IMG/VR virus record: IMGVR_UViG_3300033066_001054
Length of the DNA: 64,000 nucleotides
Reading direction: 5' to 3' (one strand)
DNA from: a virus
Lineage: Duplodnaviria; Caudoviricetes
Both the position numbers and the translations under genes were made by a program. This document shows positions 4,188-52,572 of this stretch, in pieces (position 1 is the first letter of the stretch; each line of letters begins with the position of its first letter). The notes under the pieces were generated by a model. That model was not told the DNA's origin, searched no databases, and saw nothing but the letters and a program-made list of their open reading frames with translations.

Positions 4188-4258
4188 AAGAGATTGATGT
4201 ATTGTTAACATGCCGAGCTTTGAACTCGGATAAGCTGGTTAGATTCCAGTATCTCATC
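4188..4258 (+). tRNA. degenerate tRNA-Gln(UUG)-like element
   Basis: D stem ATGT/ACAT, anticodon arm CCGAG-CTTTGAA-CTCGG, T arm GCTGG-TTAGATT-CCAGT, acceptor GAGAT/ATCTC; imperfect acceptor, non-canonical T loop, no CCA. Confidence 0.55.
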
Positions 4259-4325
4259 GGTTAAGCGAAGGGTTCGCGCACTTTCTTATAAAAAGTGAGT
4301 CCTGGTTCGACTCCAGGTAACTAGG
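4257..4325 (+). tRNA. degenerate tRNA-Ile(UAU)-like element
   Basis: D arm GCGAA-GGG-TTCGC, anticodon arm ACTTT-CTTATAA-AAAGT, T arm CCTGG-TTCGACT-CCAGG, weak acceptor GGTTA/TAACT; no CCA. Confidence 0.55.
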
Positions 4326-4388
4326 CACGGTGTGTCGGGCACCGCTATACATATATTCGATTTGGTAGAATTTACAAGTTACAACCAG

Positions 4389-5973: not shown

Positions 5974-6077
5974 ATGCTATACTCTGTGTGCAATCATTTC
6001 GCGGCCCCGGAAACCAGCTTCGCTGGTTAAAATATCGAGCGGCCCCGGAAATCGAGTCGCAGGAGTTAAAACAAATC

Positions 6078-9762: not shown

Positions 9763-10263
9763 ATGACAATCAACAACGCTTTTAACCAAATTGTGGCAGT
9801 GGTGACCGGGCTCATCAATATCATCGACCGAGAGCTCGGCGCGATGGAGATGCTCGGCAACACCGAAGCCAAAGACGTATTCATCGAGGCAAAGAATTCA
9901 CTGCAGGCCTCGACCGGTGGCAGCGGCTTTGTCGGCGGAGTTAGGATGTTGAATGCAATCAACACGTGTTCCAAAGCATTCGAAGACCAAGCCATTGCAG
10001 AACCCGTTACGCCTGAATATTGGCTCCAGCATGCCTACGAATTCCGTCACGGTGCTGAGATGGCGGCCACTGATTTATTGCACGCTGTTGGCAGTGCTCC
10101 TCAATTCGAGCGTTCACTAGCTGGGTTAAGAATCAGTTGTGCCTATCTCGCGAAGCAATTGGGTCATCGCGACGCAGCTCTTGCGTTTGCGCAAGGCGCA
10201 CTGCGATTAGCGGCCCCGGAATCAGACATCGAGCTAGTGAAGAGGGTAATGCAACCGCATTAG
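9763..10263 (+). CDS. hypothetical protein
   Basis: ORF following hairpin 9722-9749; helical composition. Confidence 0.65.
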   Translation: MTINNAFNQIVAVVTGLINIIDRELGAMEMLGNTEAKDVFIEAKNSLQASTGGSGFVGGVRMLNAINTCSKAFEDQAIAEPVTPEYWLQHAYEFRHGAEMAATDLLHAVGSAPQFERSLAGLRISCAYLAKQLGHRDAALAFAQGALRLAAPESDIELVKRVMQPH

Positions 10264-10272
10264 GAGAAAGAA

Positions 10273-15051: not shown

Positions 15052-15108
15052 AACACCCACGGCCCCGGAACTTCGGTTCCGGGGTATCATTTGCCTTGTG
15101 AGGAATCA

Positions 15109-15513
15109 ATGAAAAAATCCTACGTAATCATGGCCCCATACTGGGACTACAACGATGAATACAGCTACACCGTTGGCGAAGGCGCCGGCAGTCCTGTGGC
15201 TTCATTCACAAATCGAGAAGCCGCTGACAAGCGTTGCGAAGAACTCGAAATCGAAGCGTGGCGACTTAACCTGGCCGGTGAATCCATCGGCGGATGGATG
15301 TGGGACTCATACAAAGATATGTCCGCATTGTCCGAGGATGAGGCCCAAGAGAAACTCAAAGCCGCGTTCCCTGACGAAGATGGCGATGATGTCGAAATCG
15401 ACTTGGATGACTTCGTTGTTCCGTCTGACGTCACCGACGAACAGATTGCTGTTTTGCGCGAAGTCTTTAGCTGGATTTACTTCAATCACGTCGTTGAGGT
15501 AGACTTAGAGTAA
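15109..15513 (+). CDS. hypothetical acidic protein (paralog of 15683)
   Basis: YNDE, PVA.F, TD.QI motifs shared with 15683..16099. Confidence 0.75.
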   Translation: MKKSYVIMAPYWDYNDEYSYTVGEGAGSPVASFTNREAADKRCEELEIEAWRLNLAGESIGGWMWDSYKDMSALSEDEAQEKLKAAFPDEDGDDVEIDLDDFVVPSDVTDEQIAVLREVFSWIYFNHVVEVDLE

Positions 15514-16099: not shown

Positions 16100-16157
16100 A
16101 AACCCGGCCCCGGAACCGCAGTTCCGGGGCTTTCTTTCTTTCGGAGACATCAAAAAC

Positions 16158-20224: not shown

Positions 20225-20278
20225 TTGAGCCCGGATTTTTGAATCAACGCGGTTTGAAAAAACCGAAAGAGCACGCTT

Positions 20279-24836: not shown

Positions 24837-24903
24837 CCCCGGCCCCGGAGCTTCGGCTCCGGGGCTTTTTTCGTTTATCGGCCTGTGCCGAAGGAGAACA
24901 AAA

Positions 24904-35657: not shown

Positions 35658-35695
35658 CCGGCCCCGGAGTTACGTTTCGAGACAAACCAATCATC

Positions 35696-35896
35696 ATGGC
35701 AAATCCAACGGTTTTCCAATGCCTGACTTTGGCGGCGGCTATCGACCTGTATGCTAAGACTGGAATCAAGGCAAACAGGTCGTACACTCCGACCAATATG
35801 CTCAGAACCGCCAGCAAGCTGACTGGCAAGACATTCAAGCGGGGTCAATACCAAGCGGCCTCGGAAGCACTTAGGGAGCACGCAAAGACAATATGA
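35696..35896 (+). CDS. hypothetical protein
   Basis: ATG 37 nt after motif. Confidence 0.7.
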   Translation: MANPTVFQCLTLAAAIDLYAKTGIKANRSYTPTNMLRTASKLTGKTFKRGQYQAASEALREHAKTI

Positions 35897-36294: not shown

Positions 36295-36382
36295 CCACCG
36301 GCCCCGGAGCTTCGGCTCCGGGGTATACTTTCAATGTCGCCGCCCATTTTTGGCGGCAAATGGCTAACAGGAAAAACCTACT

Positions 36383-37447
36383 ATGTCAAACCCATACACT
36401 CAACTCGCAGTTGCTAAAATCCTTGGCAACGGTTCTCCAATCCCTCTACTGCCTTCTGGTAACAAGCCGGTCGCCGTAGGGTTCGCCCATATCTCGCCAG
36501 AGCAAGCCGCCAAACTTGTCGAGTGCAAAACGCTCTACGCTGTCCGTCGCCGGTACGATACCAAGGTTAAGGAATATCGTTCCACTATGGACGCTGGCAA
36601 TTGGTCTGATGACTGCAGCATCTCATTTGTGGTGTTGCGAGGTCACGAGGACCAGTGGTGCATCGCCAACGGCAATCACCGCCTCGAAAGCCTGTCCGGC
36701 GCGAAAATCCCCGGTCTGGATGTGCAGGTAACGATTCACCTGGTGGAAACCAAGACCGACCTTCAACGGCTAGTCAATGGCATGGACAGCGGCAAAAGTC
36801 GAAGCAATGCTGACAAGCTCATGATTGGCGGCTTCGGACACCTGCCCGACTTGAAACTGCTCGGCGGCTGCCTTGGTGCGCTGCGGTATGGTTTCACGTT
36901 CTCGCAGTCAAGCATGGAACACAATGACATTGTGGCTTCTGCTAAGGCATGGGAACCCTACTACACCGCCTATATGGAAGTGATTACTGGCGACATTCCA
37001 GAACTTCCGACCATTCCGACTTACCAGCAGGATGCAATGGCTGCTAAGTTGCGGACTAACGTGGTGGCTTCGGTTGGCATGGTGACCTTCAGCAACAGCG
37101 ACCCAGATATGGTTGCGATGGCAAAGGTGTTCTGGCGCGGCTTGCGAACTCTTGACGCCCAAGGTGATGACCGCTTACAGGTTTACATCAAGGAAACCCA
37201 AGAACTGTTCCACCAGCTTTCAGAGTCCGCTCTGAAAGGCAAGAACCCGCTTCGCTCCGAAGGTGGTCGGCGCAGACTGTTCCGACAGATGTGCGTTCTG
37301 TGGAATGATTGGGTGGATGGTGCTGAAAAGCCTCGAAGCCTGACTTCAGTCACCGAAGAGATGTTCCCCGCAATCAAGGCAACCAACCTTGACGGTACGG
37401 CGAACAAGGCATGGTCTTCAATCAAGCGCGATTGGACCATCGTCTAA
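36383..37447 (+). CDS. ParB/Srx-like N-terminal domain protein
   Basis: ISPEQA.KL...Y...M..GNW...ANGNHRL...MDSGKSRS (variant of DGQHRL). Confidence 0.6.
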   Translation: MSNPYTQLAVAKILGNGSPIPLLPSGNKPVAVGFAHISPEQAAKLVECKTLYAVRRRYDTKVKEYRSTMDAGNWSDDCSISFVVLRGHEDQWCIANGNHRLESLSGAKIPGLDVQVTIHLVETKTDLQRLVNGMDSGKSRSNADKLMIGGFGHLPDLKLLGGCLGALRYGFTFSQSSMEHNDIVASAKAWEPYYTAYMEVITGDIPELPTIPTYQQDAMAAKLRTNVVASVGMVTFSNSDPDMVAMAKVFWRGLRTLDAQGDDRLQVYIKETQELFHQLSESALKGKNPLRSEGGRRRLFRQMCVLWNDWVDGAEKPRSLTSVTEEMFPAIKATNLDGTANKAWSSIKRDWTIV

Positions 37448-41580: not shown

Positions 41581-41877
41581 ATGCCAACCATCTATGCCAT
41601 CGCACTTGGAAGTCGAGACGGAGACACCAGTACCGAACTCAAAATGGCGAACGGCGCGAAAGACGCGCTCGAAGCCGTTAAGGAACTGGCATCGAAGCAC
41701 ATTGCCTATGTACTGGCAGGCGAAGAGGACGCTCAACAGTTTGTTGATGCTATCAACGCTTCAAATGCAATCGACCAGGCATTGTCAAGATTCGATGACG
41801 CCATGCAAGAAGCACACGACCGTGAAGTCGAAAACGCCTACTCTGCCGAACTCGTCATTGAGGCGTTAGAGGCGTAG
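41581..41877 (+). CDS. hypothetical protein
   Basis: ATG 37 nt after motif. Confidence 0.7.
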   Translation: MPTIYAIALGSRDGDTSTELKMANGAKDALEAVKELASKHIAYVLAGEEDAQQFVDAINASNAIDQALSRFDDAMQEAHDREVENAYSAELVIEALEA

Positions 41878-48014: not shown

Positions 48015-48059
48015 CCCTGAACCGGCCCCGGAGCTTCGGCTCCGGGGCTTTTTTGCTTC

Positions 48060-48269
48060 ATGAACAAGATTCAACGCATCGCAGCAACACTCGGCATTCC
48101 TGCGAACGAAATCACAAAAGCCGAGCGAAAAGCCATCAGCAAGACCAAATCAGCCGCAGAAGTGTGCCGAATACTTGCAATTGAAGTCGACGGTAATGTA
48201 CAATATGTGCAGGCCGCCATGAAGCGACACAAGAAGTCGAAAGCGCAGGTGTATGCGTATGCGGCGTAA
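48060..48269 (+). CDS. hypothetical protein
   Basis: ATG 37 nt after motif. Confidence 0.7.
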   Translation: MNKIQRIAATLGIPANEITKAERKAISKTKSAAEVCRILAIEVDGNVQYVQAAMKRHKKSKAQVYAYAA

Positions 48270-48281
48270 TGGAGTAAAACT

Positions 48282-48413
48282 ATGAGTCTACAAGGTTCAG
48301 GATGCATGTTCATCATCGGGATGCTGTTCTGTGCGATGTTCTGGGGATTCTATGGTGCTTTTTGGTGGACGGTTGCAAGCGTCATCGTCACCATATTGAG
48401 CAACGACGACTAA
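48282..48413 (+). CDS. small membrane protein (43 aa)
   Basis: SD GGAG; hydrophobic; stop abuts motif. Confidence 0.55.
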   Translation: MSLQGSGCMFIIGMLFCAMFWGFYGAFWWTVASVIVTILSNDD

Positions 48414-48453
48414 GCCGGTCCCGGAACTCAAACAACCAACAAATCACAAAAGC

Positions 48454-48828
48454 ATGTGGAAAACATCAAAGATGGAATCCACCTTCGAGCATAGCCTTGA
48501 AGGTGCAAAGCAGGCTGGGTTCAACGGTTGCATCAAGTATGCCGACCAAGACACCGCAGTCGAAGCCAAAAAGGTACTTCGACCGCACTTGGATGAAGCA
48601 TACGACCTTGTCGCTTACCAGGGTGATGTCACAGCCGAGGTTGACATGGAGTACATGAGCGAACCAAGACTTCGGGTTTCTGAGTTCCTCAAGGCGATTG
48701 TTGCCACTAACCCAGTATCAGCCGAGTTTGAAGCTGAGGATGAGGACGGTGAACAGTACCAGATGAACCTGGTGGATGGTCAATGGGTGCTCATGCAACG
48801 CTCTGACAACTTCCAAGAGGTAGCGTAA
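48454..48828 (+). CDS. hypothetical protein
   Basis: ATG 38 nt after motif. Confidence 0.7.
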   Translation: MWKTSKMESTFEHSLEGAKQAGFNGCIKYADQDTAVEAKKVLRPHLDEAYDLVAYQGDVTAEVDMEYMSEPRLRVSEFLKAIVATNPVSAEFEAEDEDGEQYQMNLVDGQWVLMQRSDNFQEVA

Positions 48829-48871
48829 AACTCGCGGTCCCGGAACTTCGGTTCCGGGACTTTTTTCATTT

Positions 48872-49045
48872 ATGCCGAAAGCAAAGCCGGTCAAGACGCT
48901 CAAAGAGCTGGGCGAAATCATCACTAAGAACTTCTCGCAGAAAATGATTCGCGAGGGGTACAATATCGACCCGTCTGACTTGGAAGAGGTCGGCCGCCAA
49001 GCATTGGCATGGGGCGATATTCGACGCGACGGTACACTCAACTAG
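48872..49045 (+). CDS. hypothetical protein (57 aa)
   Basis: ATG 37 nt after motif; not in ORF track. Confidence 0.65.
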   Translation: MPKAKPVKTLKELGEIITKNFSQKMIREGYNIDPSDLEEVGRQALAWGDIRRDGTLN

Positions 49046-49054
49046 GAGGTTGAT

Positions 49055-49267
49055 ATGCAAACCACAGTAAGGCACTTGCTACCGGGCGATGTCCTGGTAG
49101 GTTCGGGGTTCACGGTGACCCGTGCGCCATATGTTGCGGTCAATACACCGCGTGGCAAGATGTGCGTTGAAGGGCACTACAAGAACAAACCGGTAGGCAC
49201 TCGCATTTGGGGAGCATCAACCACCGTCACAATCAAGCGCGAAGGCGCGGTCCCGGAACCCGGATAG
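49055..49267 (+). CDS. hypothetical protein
   Basis: strong SD AGGAGGT. Confidence 0.7.
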   Translation: MQTTVRHLLPGDVLVGSGFTVTRAPYVAVNTPRGKMCVEGHYKNKPVGTRIWGASTTVTIKREGAVPEPG

Positions 49268-49285
49268 TCCGGGTTCCATACAATC

Positions 49286-49654
49286 ATGGAAACATGGCTG
49301 AAGGACGACGATGCCAAGGCAATCTGCCGGCATCGAGCGAAGTCAAACGAGTACATTCGACGCCGGTTGTCCTCCGGCGCGAAAGTACCGCGAGCGGAAT
49401 GGATGCAATGGGCGCACGAGTACGATGCAGTCCATACAATCCTGAAGGTACTCGCTGGTATCTGCGACGGCGCAAAGTCGCATGATGGATGCGGATTCAA
49501 CAAACTGGACTCAGGCAGGGGCAAGCGACTGGCTTATCAGTCAGAACTTACCAACGATGAGTTCTGGACTGGAGTCCGAATAGTCCGCAAGTACCACAAG
49601 CAAATCGACCCCGCACTCATGGCGTGGGTTCCCCGGTCCCGGAACCCGCAATAG
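49286..49654 (+). CDS. hypothetical protein with CDGA..DG.GFN.LD domain
   Basis: motif resembles a small domain seen appended to phage helicases. Confidence 0.7.
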   Translation: METWLKDDDAKAICRHRAKSNEYIRRRLSSGAKVPRAEWMQWAHEYDAVHTILKVLAGICDGAKSHDGCGFNKLDSGRGKRLAYQSELTNDEFWTGVRIVRKYHKQIDPALMAWVPRSRNPQ

Positions 49655-49670
49655 CGGGTTCCCACCTAAC

Positions 49671-49991
49671 ATGAGCGAAACACTCGAAAACTCCGCCGAC
49701 CGCTTCTTCAAGTGGTTGGATTCAATCGCTGAATCGACGCTCGGGAAAATCGGTAAGTCGAAAGGATTCCATATCTGGCACTCAGGTGGTGGTTGCCATC
49801 ATTTCCGAAAGGACAATCCGAACGGATGCTATGTCCTGGTGTGCCACGAATCCGAGATTCCCGAAAACGACCTTGGAACCTGGATGGTCGGCACCTACGA
49901 TGCCGAAGGTATGGAAATCGGAGTCGAGGACTTCGAGGGAAAACTCGAAGATGCGCTGGATATGGCGGACAAACTTCTAGCCGAAGTCTAG
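49671..49991 (+). CDS. hypothetical protein
   Basis: ATG 37 nt after motif; WHSGGGC. Confidence 0.7.
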   Translation: MSETLENSADRFFKWLDSIAESTLGKIGKSKGFHIWHSGGGCHHFRKDNPNGCYVLVCHESEIPENDLGTWMVGTYDAEGMEIGVEDFEGKLEDALDMADKLLAEV

Positions 49992-50029
49992 CCGGTCCCG
50001 GAACCCCGGAAACGGGGTTCCCACCTATC

Positions 50030-50233
50030 ATGGACATCAAGAAGATTAAACAGTCCATCGGAGAACAGTACGCTTATGTACTGCGCTCCGATATCTACAC
50101 CGATGAGGTGCGCAAGCAAATCATCGCTGCAATGGATGACATGGTGGAACTCACTTCCAAAATCACAGGGTACACCGTGACCGAACTCAAGGAACTCGTA
50201 CCCGATGGACGCCCGGTCCCGGAACCCGCCTAG
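50030..50233 (+). CDS. hypothetical protein
   Basis: ATG 37 nt after motif. Confidence 0.65.
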   Translation: MDIKKIKQSIGEQYAYVLRSDIYTDEVRKQIIAAMDDMVELTSKITGYTVTELKELVPDGRPVPEPA

Positions 50234-50274
50234 TGCGGGTTCCATAAAGCATCACCACGGAGGGTGACAGCATC

Positions 50275-50565
50275 ATGGAAGATAACAAGACAGGTTTACA
50301 ACGTGCCCTAGAGAACGCTGCTATCAAGGCAGGCTGGGGCATTCTCGTCACCGCGATGGCACTGCCTACTGCATGGCAATGGGCAACCACACTTGACCCT
50401 GATGGCATCTTAGGTGTCACGATTGCACTTTGCATCCTCGGATGCGCTGCGCTATCGCCCCTAGTGCTAGGATGCGGGTTTGCATCCGATGACCTGCGAA
50501 AAGCGCGTCGTATATGGCGTGCTTCACGACCACAACTGCGGTCCCGGAATCAGCGGAACGCCTAG
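50275..50565 (+). CDS. two-helix membrane protein
   Basis: SD GGAGG; two hydrophobic segments. Confidence 0.65.
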   Translation: MEDNKTGLQRALENAAIKAGWGILVTAMALPTAWQWATTLDPDGILGVTIALCILGCAALSPLVLGCGFASDDLRKARRIWRASRPQLRSRNQRNA

Positions 50566-50610
50566 ACCATATCAATGTCCCAAGCAATGGGACGGAGGAA
50601 AATCACACTC

Positions 50611-50805
50611 ATGTTCACCGTAGACAAGTTCGACCCCAAGACCAACAAGCTCACCGTCACGTTCGACCTCAGCGCACCCCGCAAGCCGGAACCCGGCAAG
50701 GTCATGTGGATGATGGGTACGACCGGCGGATTCAAGGAAGTTCCCGGCGTCAACATCGACGGGCACGCTCTCAAGTTGTCCGCCAATATCGGCTTCAAGA
50801 AGTAG
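50611..50805 (+). CDS. hypothetical protein
   Basis: SD GGAGG after GTCCC hairpin leader. Confidence 0.7.
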   Translation: MFTVDKFDPKTNKLTVTFDLSAPRKPEPGKVMWMMGTTGGFKEVPGVNIDGHALKLSANIGFKK

Positions 50806-50877
50806 CCACAATCGCCGGTCCCGGAACCCCGCCTAGCGGGGTTCCTCTACATTGTCCCAAGGGACAAAGGAGATACG

Positions 50878-51105
50878 ATGCCTAAGACAAGCACAGTCAT
50901 CGACAACGCCGTTGCGGAATACACGCAACGCCAGACTCGCCAAGCCGTCAAGCGACTGACGGCGCAAGCCGAACGCCTCAATGGTGACCGGCTTTGCCGA
51001 CTTCCCAAAGCCGATGAACGGCTTGTCAAGACCTTGCGCGACCTTAGCGCAATCGACCGCGAAGGTGCCAAGCATCTCGCCAAGTCTATGGGGATGACGT
51101 TCTAA
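50878..51105 (+). CDS. hypothetical protein
   Basis: SD AAGGAG after GTCCC hairpin leader. Confidence 0.7.
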   Translation: MPKTSTVIDNAVAEYTQRQTRQAVKRLTAQAERLNGDRLCRLPKADERLVKTLRDLSAIDREGAKHLAKSMGMTF

Positions 51106-51173
51106 ATCGCCGGTCCCGGAACCCCGCCTAGCGGGGTTCCATTGTAATGTCCCAAGGGACAACAGGAGGAACC

Positions 51174-51383
51174 ATGAAGGTTACTGATATCCGCCTCACC
51201 GCTTCGGCAGAGGGCACGCTCGTCACTCCGGTAAACGCGCTCGGTTCGCGGGTTGCCAAGACCCAACTGCCAGGTTGCGGTGACTTTACCGCCATTGGCG
51301 TGCCCGTGACCGTCAAGATGCCGGTCGATATTGTCAAGTCGATTCTGCGCGGTCGAGGTGCGCGATTCAGCGCGACCGCATAA
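51174..51383 (+). CDS. hypothetical protein
   Basis: SD AGGAGG after GTCCC hairpin leader. Confidence 0.7.
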   Translation: MKVTDIRLTASAEGTLVTPVNALGSRVAKTQLPGCGDFTAIGVPVTVKMPVDIVKSILRGRGARFSATA

Positions 51384-51423
51384 CAGCGGTCCCGGAACCC
51401 CGGAAACGGGGTTCCCACCTATC

Positions 51424-51528: not shown

Positions 51529-51857
51529 CCGCCGGTCCCGGAACTCAACACACGACCAAACGCCTAAGCATGGCAAGAGAGGTAGTCACATGAAGCGCTG
51601 AGCATTCAAGCTAATCTGGAACCGACAAGCCGGGGTGGTGCCCCGGCTCCAAATCCAAGGCGGCCCCGGACGCCTGGCAAGCGCCCGGTGACTAGCTCCC
51701 GGCTCGCAAGCCGGACCGCCGAGGTCGACCTTGGTGCCAATCGCTGTTTCCCTAAGTGGAGGGGGTGGGGTCAAGATTTTAGGTACCATATTGGAAATAG
51801 TAACGTCCGTATACGGGATGTTATTTTTCTTCTGTGAGTCATATTAGTGAGCGCCAT

Positions 51858-52572
51858 GGTGGGTCTAAAAAACAGTTTTGGTTTCAGAAAGACCATTTTT
51901 CAAAAAAATATCACAAATTTTTTCTAGATTGTAAAACCATTCTGGAACCACGGTTGAATGATGCTTTCTATGACAAATTACGCACAGTAATTCACATTTG
52001 CAAAGTTCAGTCTGTATTGTGTCCCATGGTAGCAAACGGTTGATTCCATCTCCTATTTCAAAGGTTTTCATAGATTCGTCTATGTGATGATAGTCAAATA
52101 AACAAAAGTCATCTTGAAGATTAGACTTAAGACCGCAACGATTACACTTACCGCTCATTTGAATGATTGCCAAACGTTTTAATTGCCATTTGCGATAAAG
52201 ATGCAAGCAAGCACCACACAGTTGCAATTCGTTGTTTCGACACGTTCGACCGCACACCTTGCACTTTGGTACATGAATTGGTTTTGGTTTTTGATTTAAT
52301 CTTGTGACGCCCCTTCTGGTATCTCCGGTGTAAGGCAAGCACTTAAAGCAATACTTTCTATTGTAGTTGCCAACCCTTTGACCAAGTTGATTCTCCCTCG
52401 GATAAAACAAATCACCACAAGACTGACAGGTTTTATATGAACTAGTACTTCTGTTTCTTCCCATGTGACTCTTATACACTATATGGGAGTCTTGAACAGG
52501 GGGGGTGGGTCGGAAAAACCGATTTTGGTTTGGAAACGGCCATTTTCGAAAAAATACCACACAAAAATTTCT
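51858..52572 (+). repeat. diverged ~70-bp direct repeats (51858-51925 and 52504-52572) flanking the HNH gene
   Basis: GGTGGGTC..AAAAAC..TTTTGGTTT..GAAA..CCATTTT..AAAAAATA.CACA in both copies. Confidence 0.75.
51865..52464 (-). CDS. HNH endonuclease with zinc-ribbon N-terminus
   Basis: CNRCG...FDYHHID...ELCKCELLCVICHRKHH; several CxxC; probable start MGRNRS at 52464, 6 nt after TATAAG. Confidence 0.8.
   Translation of the reverse strand: MGRNRSTSSYKTCQSCGDLFYPRENQLGQRVGNYNRKYCFKCLPYTGDTRRGVTRLNQKPKPIHVPKCKVCGRTCRNNELQLCGACLHLYRKWQLKRLAIIQMSGKCNRCGLKSNLQDDFCLFDYHHIDESMKTFEIGDGINRLLPWDTIQTELCKCELLCVICHRKHHSTVVPEWFYNLEKICDIFLKNGLSETKTVF

Follow-up and report, generated by a model that had tools for sequence, protein, structure and literature searches.

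Leadered genes in the motif array of a jumbo phage suggest a transcription start 37 or 38 nt past each motif

The window examined here, meaning the whole 64,000-nt stretch of the viral record IMGVR_UViG_3300033066_001054, is part of a jumbo-phage gene array. The nearest complete relative is the IMG/VR contig G001 (478,840 bp), with approximately 80% nucleotide identity to the window. The array (6002-51670; + strand, as for all features given below) contains 68 exact copies of the motif CGGYCCCGGA, every one of them on the + strand and ahead of a single gene. Positions such as +37 and +38 are counted in nucleotides from the first base of the motif (C). In 35 copies the ATG was found at +37, and in another 19 at +38; an ORF of at least 30 codons begins at +37/38 behind 52 of the copies. 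These are the leaderless genes of the array, and the base preceding their start codon was C or T in 52/52. G001 possesses 80 forward motif copies within 49 kb, spaced as in the window. The comparison set comprised approximately 11 strains and relatives of the array with 37-97% protein identity, some of which carry motif variants, and the motif core CGG.C..GGA was invariant. The variants CGGCCTCGGA, CGGCCTTGGA, and CGGCCTAGGA predominate in some of L113, L116, L120, L121, and L122, where the terminator arm is changed to match; region 4 of the neighbouring sigma factor offers a comparison for them. It was noted that L001, L049, L050, L053, L055, L060, and most matches of the viral search were chance or unrelated matches, and these were excluded. 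No close cultured phage relatives were found, a host genome scan returned one weak, unrelated match, and a limited literature search yielded no description of this motif or phage clade.

Near the head of the array lies the gene of a phage sigma-70-family factor (1613-2512), which is syntenic in the distant relative L113. Its family is uncharacterised, comprises approximately 20 clusters, and shows a conserved insertion separating regions 2 and 4. G001 contains three sigma-70 region-2 genes, of which one is the orthologue of 1613-2512. As regards promoters read by a phage-encoded RNA polymerase (phiKZ, AR9, T7, and N4 types), no match to beta or beta' RNA polymerase subunits was detected in G001, where the positive controls worked and divergent enzymes could escape; T7-type RNA polymerases were searched for without a positive control. 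Alignment of the 52 leaderless copies revealed no -10 consensus, the stretch before the start being merely G-poor, and sigma-70 promoters were not in excess (5 sigma-70-like sites found versus 5.7 expected). These two results count against a promoter, in that we know of no precedent for a promoter of this type and its reader is unassigned. The sigma factor at 1613-2512 is a candidate reader of the motif. The motif copies at 6002 and 6040 form a tandem pair with a distance of 38 nt (39 in G001 and 38 in L115), and the second begins where the first would initiate RNA. Upstream of this pair, ARAGORN called a tRNA-Ile with anticodon TAT at 4257-4326, abutting a tRNA-Gln. Such a tRNA-Ile is rare in bacteria. 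The Rfam scan reported tRNA only, confirming the tRNA-Gln alone. A cassette missing from the window carries a weak prepilin-type N-methylation start (PF07963; L119 5227-5574, G001 363914, L056 3853), which might bear on superinfection exclusion or on the identity of the host.

Three genes close to the end of the array are preceded by leaders that begin with GTCCC. The first cassette consists of a motif copy at 50539-50548, the putative upstream promoter element (about -38 to -29), a 5' hairpin of 6 bp with a 5-nt loop at the presumed +1 (50577-50593), the Shine-Dalgarno (SD) sequence GGAGG (50594-50598), and a 64-aa ORF of no known family (50611-50805). In the second, the motif copy (50816-50825) is overlapped by a spacer hairpin that lies upstream of the presumed start, has no U-tract, and covaries in relatives (50823-50845); it is followed by the 5' hairpin GTCC-CAAG-GGAC at the presumed +1 (50854-50865), the SD AAGGAG (50867-50872), and a 75-aa ORF with a weak match to phrog_22391, whose function is unassigned (50878-51105). 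The third repeats this arrangement with a motif copy at 51111-51120, the same spacer hairpin at 51118-51140, the same 5' hairpin at the presumed +1 (51149-51160), the SD AGGAGG (51164-51169), and a 69-aa ORF of no known family (51174-51383). The small leadered proteins had no usable family match. As the earlier note had placed them, G50577, G50854, and G51149 each lie 38 nt past the motif C (50539, 50816, and 51111), and each leader runs into an SD and then an ATG (50611, 50878, and 51174).

The details of these leaders differed in part from their first description. They had been called identical, which is true over 7 nt in all three and over 14 nt in two, and not beyond that. A pairing of the form GTCCC-AA-GGGAC would leave an impossible 2-nt loop, and the fold actually predicted pairs GUCC with GGAC around a CAAG tetraloop (-6.3 kcal/mol). 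The distance of exactly 38 nt holds within the window, whereas the GTCC leader begins at +37 in L104, L105, L111, and L123; the rule is therefore 37 or 38, as it is for the ATGs. Because the GTCC palindrome reaches the T at +37, the start could fall one base earlier. Among relatives the loop of the GTCC stem varies from 3 to 6 nt and its arms hardly vary across 20 copies, with no compensatory change among the 4 pairs (1 invariant, 3 only broken). In orthologues of 50577 both arms are replaced, and another stem, TCGC/GCGA with loops of 5-16 nt, occupies the same place. The word GTCC-N3-7-GGAC was not above chance (6 found versus 4.7 expected), and the signal is therefore the position of the word.

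Further leadered genes occur elsewhere in the window, and the six named previously (A24877, G36336, A50251, A20246, G16143, and G15098) were all confirmed as pyrimidine-purine (Y-R) steps at +37 or +38. The leader at 50251-50274 contains a TCACC/GGTGA stem (50252-50267) ahead of the gene at 50275-50565; in 8 genomes it opens at +37 with either A or G, and the preceding pyrimidine is kept. The GGAGG that had been read as its SD lies mostly in the loop and is not conserved, and the SD-like sequence that is conserved, GGTGA, forms the 3' arm of the stem. The leader at 24877-24903 combines a TCGGC/GCCGA stem (24878-24891) with an SD, and its G001 counterpart has the stem GCCC/GGGC instead. At 36336-36382 a GCCGCC/GGCGGC stem (36339-36357) precedes the gene at 36383-37447. 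The leader of a MoxR/CobS-type AAA gene (20246-20278) carries a stem at 20250-20265, in which CGGTT/AACCG becomes TGGTT/AACCA in L115. An additional case, overlooked earlier, is A10248, which opens the leader of a WGR-domain gene (10248-10272) with the stem AATGC/GCATT (10248-10261). Across seven genomes this WGR cassette aligned almost without gaps, with the motif fixed, the spacer diverged, and the stem at +37; the first stem pair changes from A-U to G-C in L117, a covariation of one pair that was not significant (29/500). The leaders at 16143-16157 and 15098-15108 had been listed among the similar cases, and no hairpin was found in either. The former is a short leader with SD-like purines at its very start, beginning at +37/38 in seven genomes with a length of 12-17 nt, and the latter is a short leader with GAGG. 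A rule without exceptions was also not upheld, as the Y-R step is missing behind the motif copies at 6002 and 51661.

Several observations were made at the end of the array. The second-last cassette (window 51570-51598; G001 369245, L119 10360, L120 3256) has a conserved SD, GAGGT, followed by an ORF of 2-3 codons (MK, MKR, or MKF, and MKY in G001) and no longer gene; it is possibly a small RNA or a ribosome decoy. The last motif copy (51661-51760) has CCC at +37 to +39, then two strong hairpins and no ORF, and the Y-R step is likewise missing in G001, L104, and L119; perhaps it produces a C-initiated non-coding RNA. At 51755-51830 a G-run is followed by an element of approximately 60 nt that is conserved in G001, L119, and L120. 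A terminus, an origin, or a packaging site is a possible identity for this element. L048 and L104-L109 lack about 51915-52500.

We assessed whether the position 37 or 38 nt past the motif behaves as an RNA start. When all exceptions to the leaderless arrangement were counted, a Y-R step was present at +37/38 in 14/16 in the window (background 0.46; P = 7e-4) and in 14/22 in G001 (P = 0.03), where 8/22 had none and several of these place the ATG at +39 to +42. A stem of -3 kcal/mol or stronger starting at +36 to +41 was found in 8/8 leaders of at least 20 nt versus 1/52 leaderless genes (P = 2e-7, with GTCC counted once), and such stems occur in at least seven unrelated leader sequences. In a hand-curated list of 53 long leaders from the relatives, which contains orthologues, 51/53 had the Y-R step at +37/38, and the best stem began at +35 to +41 in 49/53 (quartiles 37-38) while the ATG was spread from +54 to +104. 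Reduced to one member each, 9/9 unrelated leader families had stems at +36 to +41, and the product of their shuffle phase probabilities was 8e-6. Orthologue identity rose from 5.8/10 before the presumed start to 9.1/10 after it (13 pairs, not all independent). The +1 base changed from A to G with the -1 pyrimidine retained in L121, L122, and L117, and orthologues exchange stems or change between the leadered and leaderless states. The leader stems are weak (-3 to -11 kcal/mol), and single leaders folded only modestly better than their shuffles (z -0.6 to -3.3); for this reason, calling the stems stabilising rests on established knowledge. The proposal that +37/38 is an RNA 5' end thus draws support from the stem phase, the +1 purine, the conservation step, and the free leader length, and the available RNA contigs were uninformative on it. 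We assign a probability of roughly 0.8 to the reading, made from sequence comparison, in which transcription starts at +37/38 and the stems form hairpins at the very 5' end.

The distribution of SD sequences and hairpins also bears on this reading. An SD was present at 9/10 leadered starts versus 15/52 leaderless starts (P = 5e-4). Hairpins were found in 24/52 leaderless copies, 13 of them with a T-tract right before the ATG. It was noted that the SD occurs in 0/24 of the hairpin-type leaderless copies versus 15/28 of the hairpin-less ones, with agreement in G001, a contrast that is partly built in because the hairpin sequence itself restricts the room for an SD. The 13 leaderless genes that lie behind a hairpin and T-tract, with no SD, therefore need a start of their own, for which there is little room besides +37/38. 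The SDs upstream in the hairpin-less cassettes suggest an additional use of read-through RNA.

The same elements could be explained by processing, in which a transcript of the whole array is cut 37-38 nt past each motif, in the single-stranded linker between the spacer and leader hairpins, such that every piece would begin and end with a stem. We consider this improbable, and it is the best of the competing explanations. The spacer hairpin upstream of the start showed strong covariation (4/9 pairs), and in the cassettes at 50816 and 51111 this hairpin, which has no U-tract, stops 7-8 nt short of the leader stem, as cleavage in a linker would have it; the SDs upstream of +37 in 15 of the 28 hairpin-less leaderless cassettes likewise indicate that read-through RNA is probably used. 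However, a terminator-like hairpin and T-tract stand immediately before the start in 13 copies, the copies all lie on one strand before single genes, and a Y-R rule with a choice of two bases is typical of initiation. The motif, taken as RNA, would be base-paired in 24 copies and free in 28, and this mixture therefore favours its reading as DNA.

The diversity among relatives indicates that cassettes have been copied and lost. The three GTCCC leaders descend from one cassette by recombination and therefore count once rather than as three independent witnesses. The independence that had been claimed for this evidence consequently falls away for the three GTCCC leaders, and it is provided instead by the unrelated leader families and the orthologues. 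Upstream of the start, 50810-50845 is identical to 51105-51140 (36 nt), and strain L048 lacks exactly the cassette 50816-51110. In L104, L106, L107, L108, and L110 the last five cassettes, at about 49993-51423 in the window, are tandemly duplicated; in most cases the two neighbouring alleles have diverged, and leaders are joined to other alleles. A motif-to-motif deletion with its joint at 35668-35894 was seen in two runs from two studies. The GTCC leader was also encountered in G001 (369075) on the orthologue of the window gene 51387, which is leaderless in the window, and in L121 on a gene resembling the leaderless window gene at 41581; the WGR gene and its L113 orthologue likewise fall into different classes, leadered and leaderless, at the same position.

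Such losses, gains, and duplications at motifs, namely those in L048, the five duplication contigs, and the deletion found in two studies, could suggest that the motif is mainly a recombination site at which genes are inserted at a fixed distance, as in integrons, with no RNA end at +37/38 and with GTCCC as a plain duplication. This appears very unlikely. The L048 crossover falls inside the 36-nt identity at 50810-50845 and not at +37, no tyrosine recombinase (PF00589) was matched in the complete relative G001 while the control was positive in 14/14, and the unrelated stems at +36 to +41 and the conserved +1 purine would be left unexplained. The shuffling is best regarded as a side effect of having the promoter in many copies.

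An equally slim chance is given to the leaders being translated, with an ATG at +36 in the GTCCC cassettes serving as a leaderless start that would lengthen the protein at its N-terminus, and an ATG or GTG at +37/38 elsewhere opening mini-ORFs for coupling. The ATGs found at +36 at 50575 and 51147 do share the reading frame of the main ORF. In six genomes the WGR leader keeps, without variation, an ATG at +38 (10249), which opens a mini-ORF of 4-8 codons (MQxH...) with its stop near the main ATG, and in four genomes the 15098 leader has a GTG...TGA that overlaps the main ATG (window 15098-15112). Against this, the upstream ATG is in frame in 9/19 only, it is out of frame in intact orthologues, it shifts to +35 together with the leader, and no ordinary array gene begins at +36. 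The WGR and 15098 mini-ORFs are possible in themselves and compatible with a start at +37/38, and they may couple or damp translation. Least probable of all is a role of TGTCC-Nn-GGACA as an operator in the DNA, spanning the start site, through which a repressor would control the last cassettes: the arms are near-invariant in 20 copies, the T at +37 included, but they lie 3-7 nt apart depending on the copy, the inverted repeats of orthologous cassettes are unrelated, and just two scattered matches occur elsewhere in 479 kb, equal to the control.

We also examined RNA data and the expression of the leadered genes. Three wastewater metatranscriptome runs contain the region, as contigs only. Depth in these RNA runs was flat and similar to that of the DNA run, spanning the non-coding 51763-52400, and contigs ended at the same repeats in RNA and DNA (48033-50019). 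Because the RNA runs are DNA-like, contigs that cross 50251 and 50577 are neutral with respect to 5' ends. The suggestion that leadered genes are the most highly expressed members of the array found no support, as their codon use equals that of the leaderless genes (P = 0.48) and the 50251 stem buries the SD-like arm.

With transcription starting at +37/38, the array would work as follows. CGGYCCCGGA, at about -37 to -28, would act as a promoter element in the DNA, and the polymerase would initiate 37 or 38 nt past its first base, at whichever purine follows a pyrimidine. Since no phage beta or beta' subunits were found, this polymerase is probably that of the host, redirected by a phage factor that may be the sigma at 1613-2512. 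In the majority of cassettes the start codon would coincide with the +1 base, giving a leaderless mRNA with the ribosome on a terminal AUG. Short leaders (11-17 nt) would place the SD itself at the 5' end, and leaders of at least 20 nt would have a hairpin of 4-8 bp, set 0-4 nt from the 5' end, and then an SD. The likeliest role of these hairpins would be the protection of a ribosome-free 5' end from 5'-end-dependent decay. The GTCCC leader is one such leader that has spread across the last cassettes through recombination between repeats.

The leadered exceptions decouple the motif-to-start ruler from the start-to-ATG distance and so yield a prediction at single-base resolution. They form the strongest sequence-based evidence for a phage clade that would transcribe approximately 70 genes with no -10 consensus and mostly as leaderless mRNAs. 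More tentatively, and with distinctly less confidence than in the start position, the array might represent an undescribed promoter class that combines a phage sigma, one GC-rich element, no -10, a 37-38-nt ruler, 70-80 cassettes, and a 5' end that is always covered. If so, the 5' ends would be covered by an AUG-bound ribosome, an SD-bound ribosome, or a hairpin, in a phage-wide strategy to outlast 5'-end-dependent decay. With starts at +37/38, the array presents side by side, behind one kind of promoter, 5' ends that would be leaderless, SD-terminal, or hairpin-terminal, and its class-switching orthologues could show how the make-up of the 5' end governs the lifetime and output of an mRNA.

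Among known systems, the promoter-early stem-loop (PeSL) cassettes of the T4-type phages RB49/phi1, PST, and nt-1 (PMC2839356, PMC4122927) share several features with the array. Both have repeated intergenic units before small genes without assigned function in a variable region. In PeSLs the promoter overlaps a terminator hairpin, as may be the case for the 24/52 leaderless copies with a hairpin, whose terminators are predicted. Single genes are lost or shuffled when the units recombine, comparable here to the L048 deletion, the duplications, and the joint at 35668-35894. However, PeSLs have sigma-70 -35/-10 boxes and end in an SD, whereas the array has a GC-rich 10-mer with no -10 consensus, mostly no SD, and a start codon on the presumed +1; in addition, its leadered minority carries a second hairpin downstream of +1. 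Because two defining features fail, namely the sigma-70 boxes and the terminal SD, the array was not classed as PeSL. The SAS/ESAS repeats of Cluster K mycobacteriophages and the repeats of Microbacterium phages (PMC3203893, PMC7302621) are also conserved phage-specific repeats before start codons, some containing inverted repeats, and their function is putative. SAS is SD-like and sits at the SD position, whereas the motif here is of unrelated sequence, is not SD-like, lies 27-28 nt from the start codon, and is present in 68-80 copies. The array differs from an integron cassette array in having no tyrosine recombinase match and a crossover in shared identity upstream of +37.

The leaderless promoters of Thermus phage phiYS40 rest on a -10-like box, whereas the conserved element here lies at about -37 to -28. 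The mRNAs of phiKZ and AR9 have leaders. The middle and late mRNAs of phiYS40 are reported to be leaderless (PMC3594737, citing Sevostyanova 2007), and the phage studied here would resemble it as a large phage in which most mRNAs of one class have no leader. The 5'-terminal stem-loops of ompA, papA, and aprE hinder 5'-end-dependent decay, and RppH needs at least 2 unpaired 5' bases (PMC3997798). The hairpin mechanism itself is already known. The leaders described here resemble these cases in having a stem 0-4 nt from the presumed 5' end and then a free SD. They differ in being phage stems that are short (4-8 bp) and of at least seven origins with unrelated sequences, for which a role in mRNA half-life is suggested by analogy.
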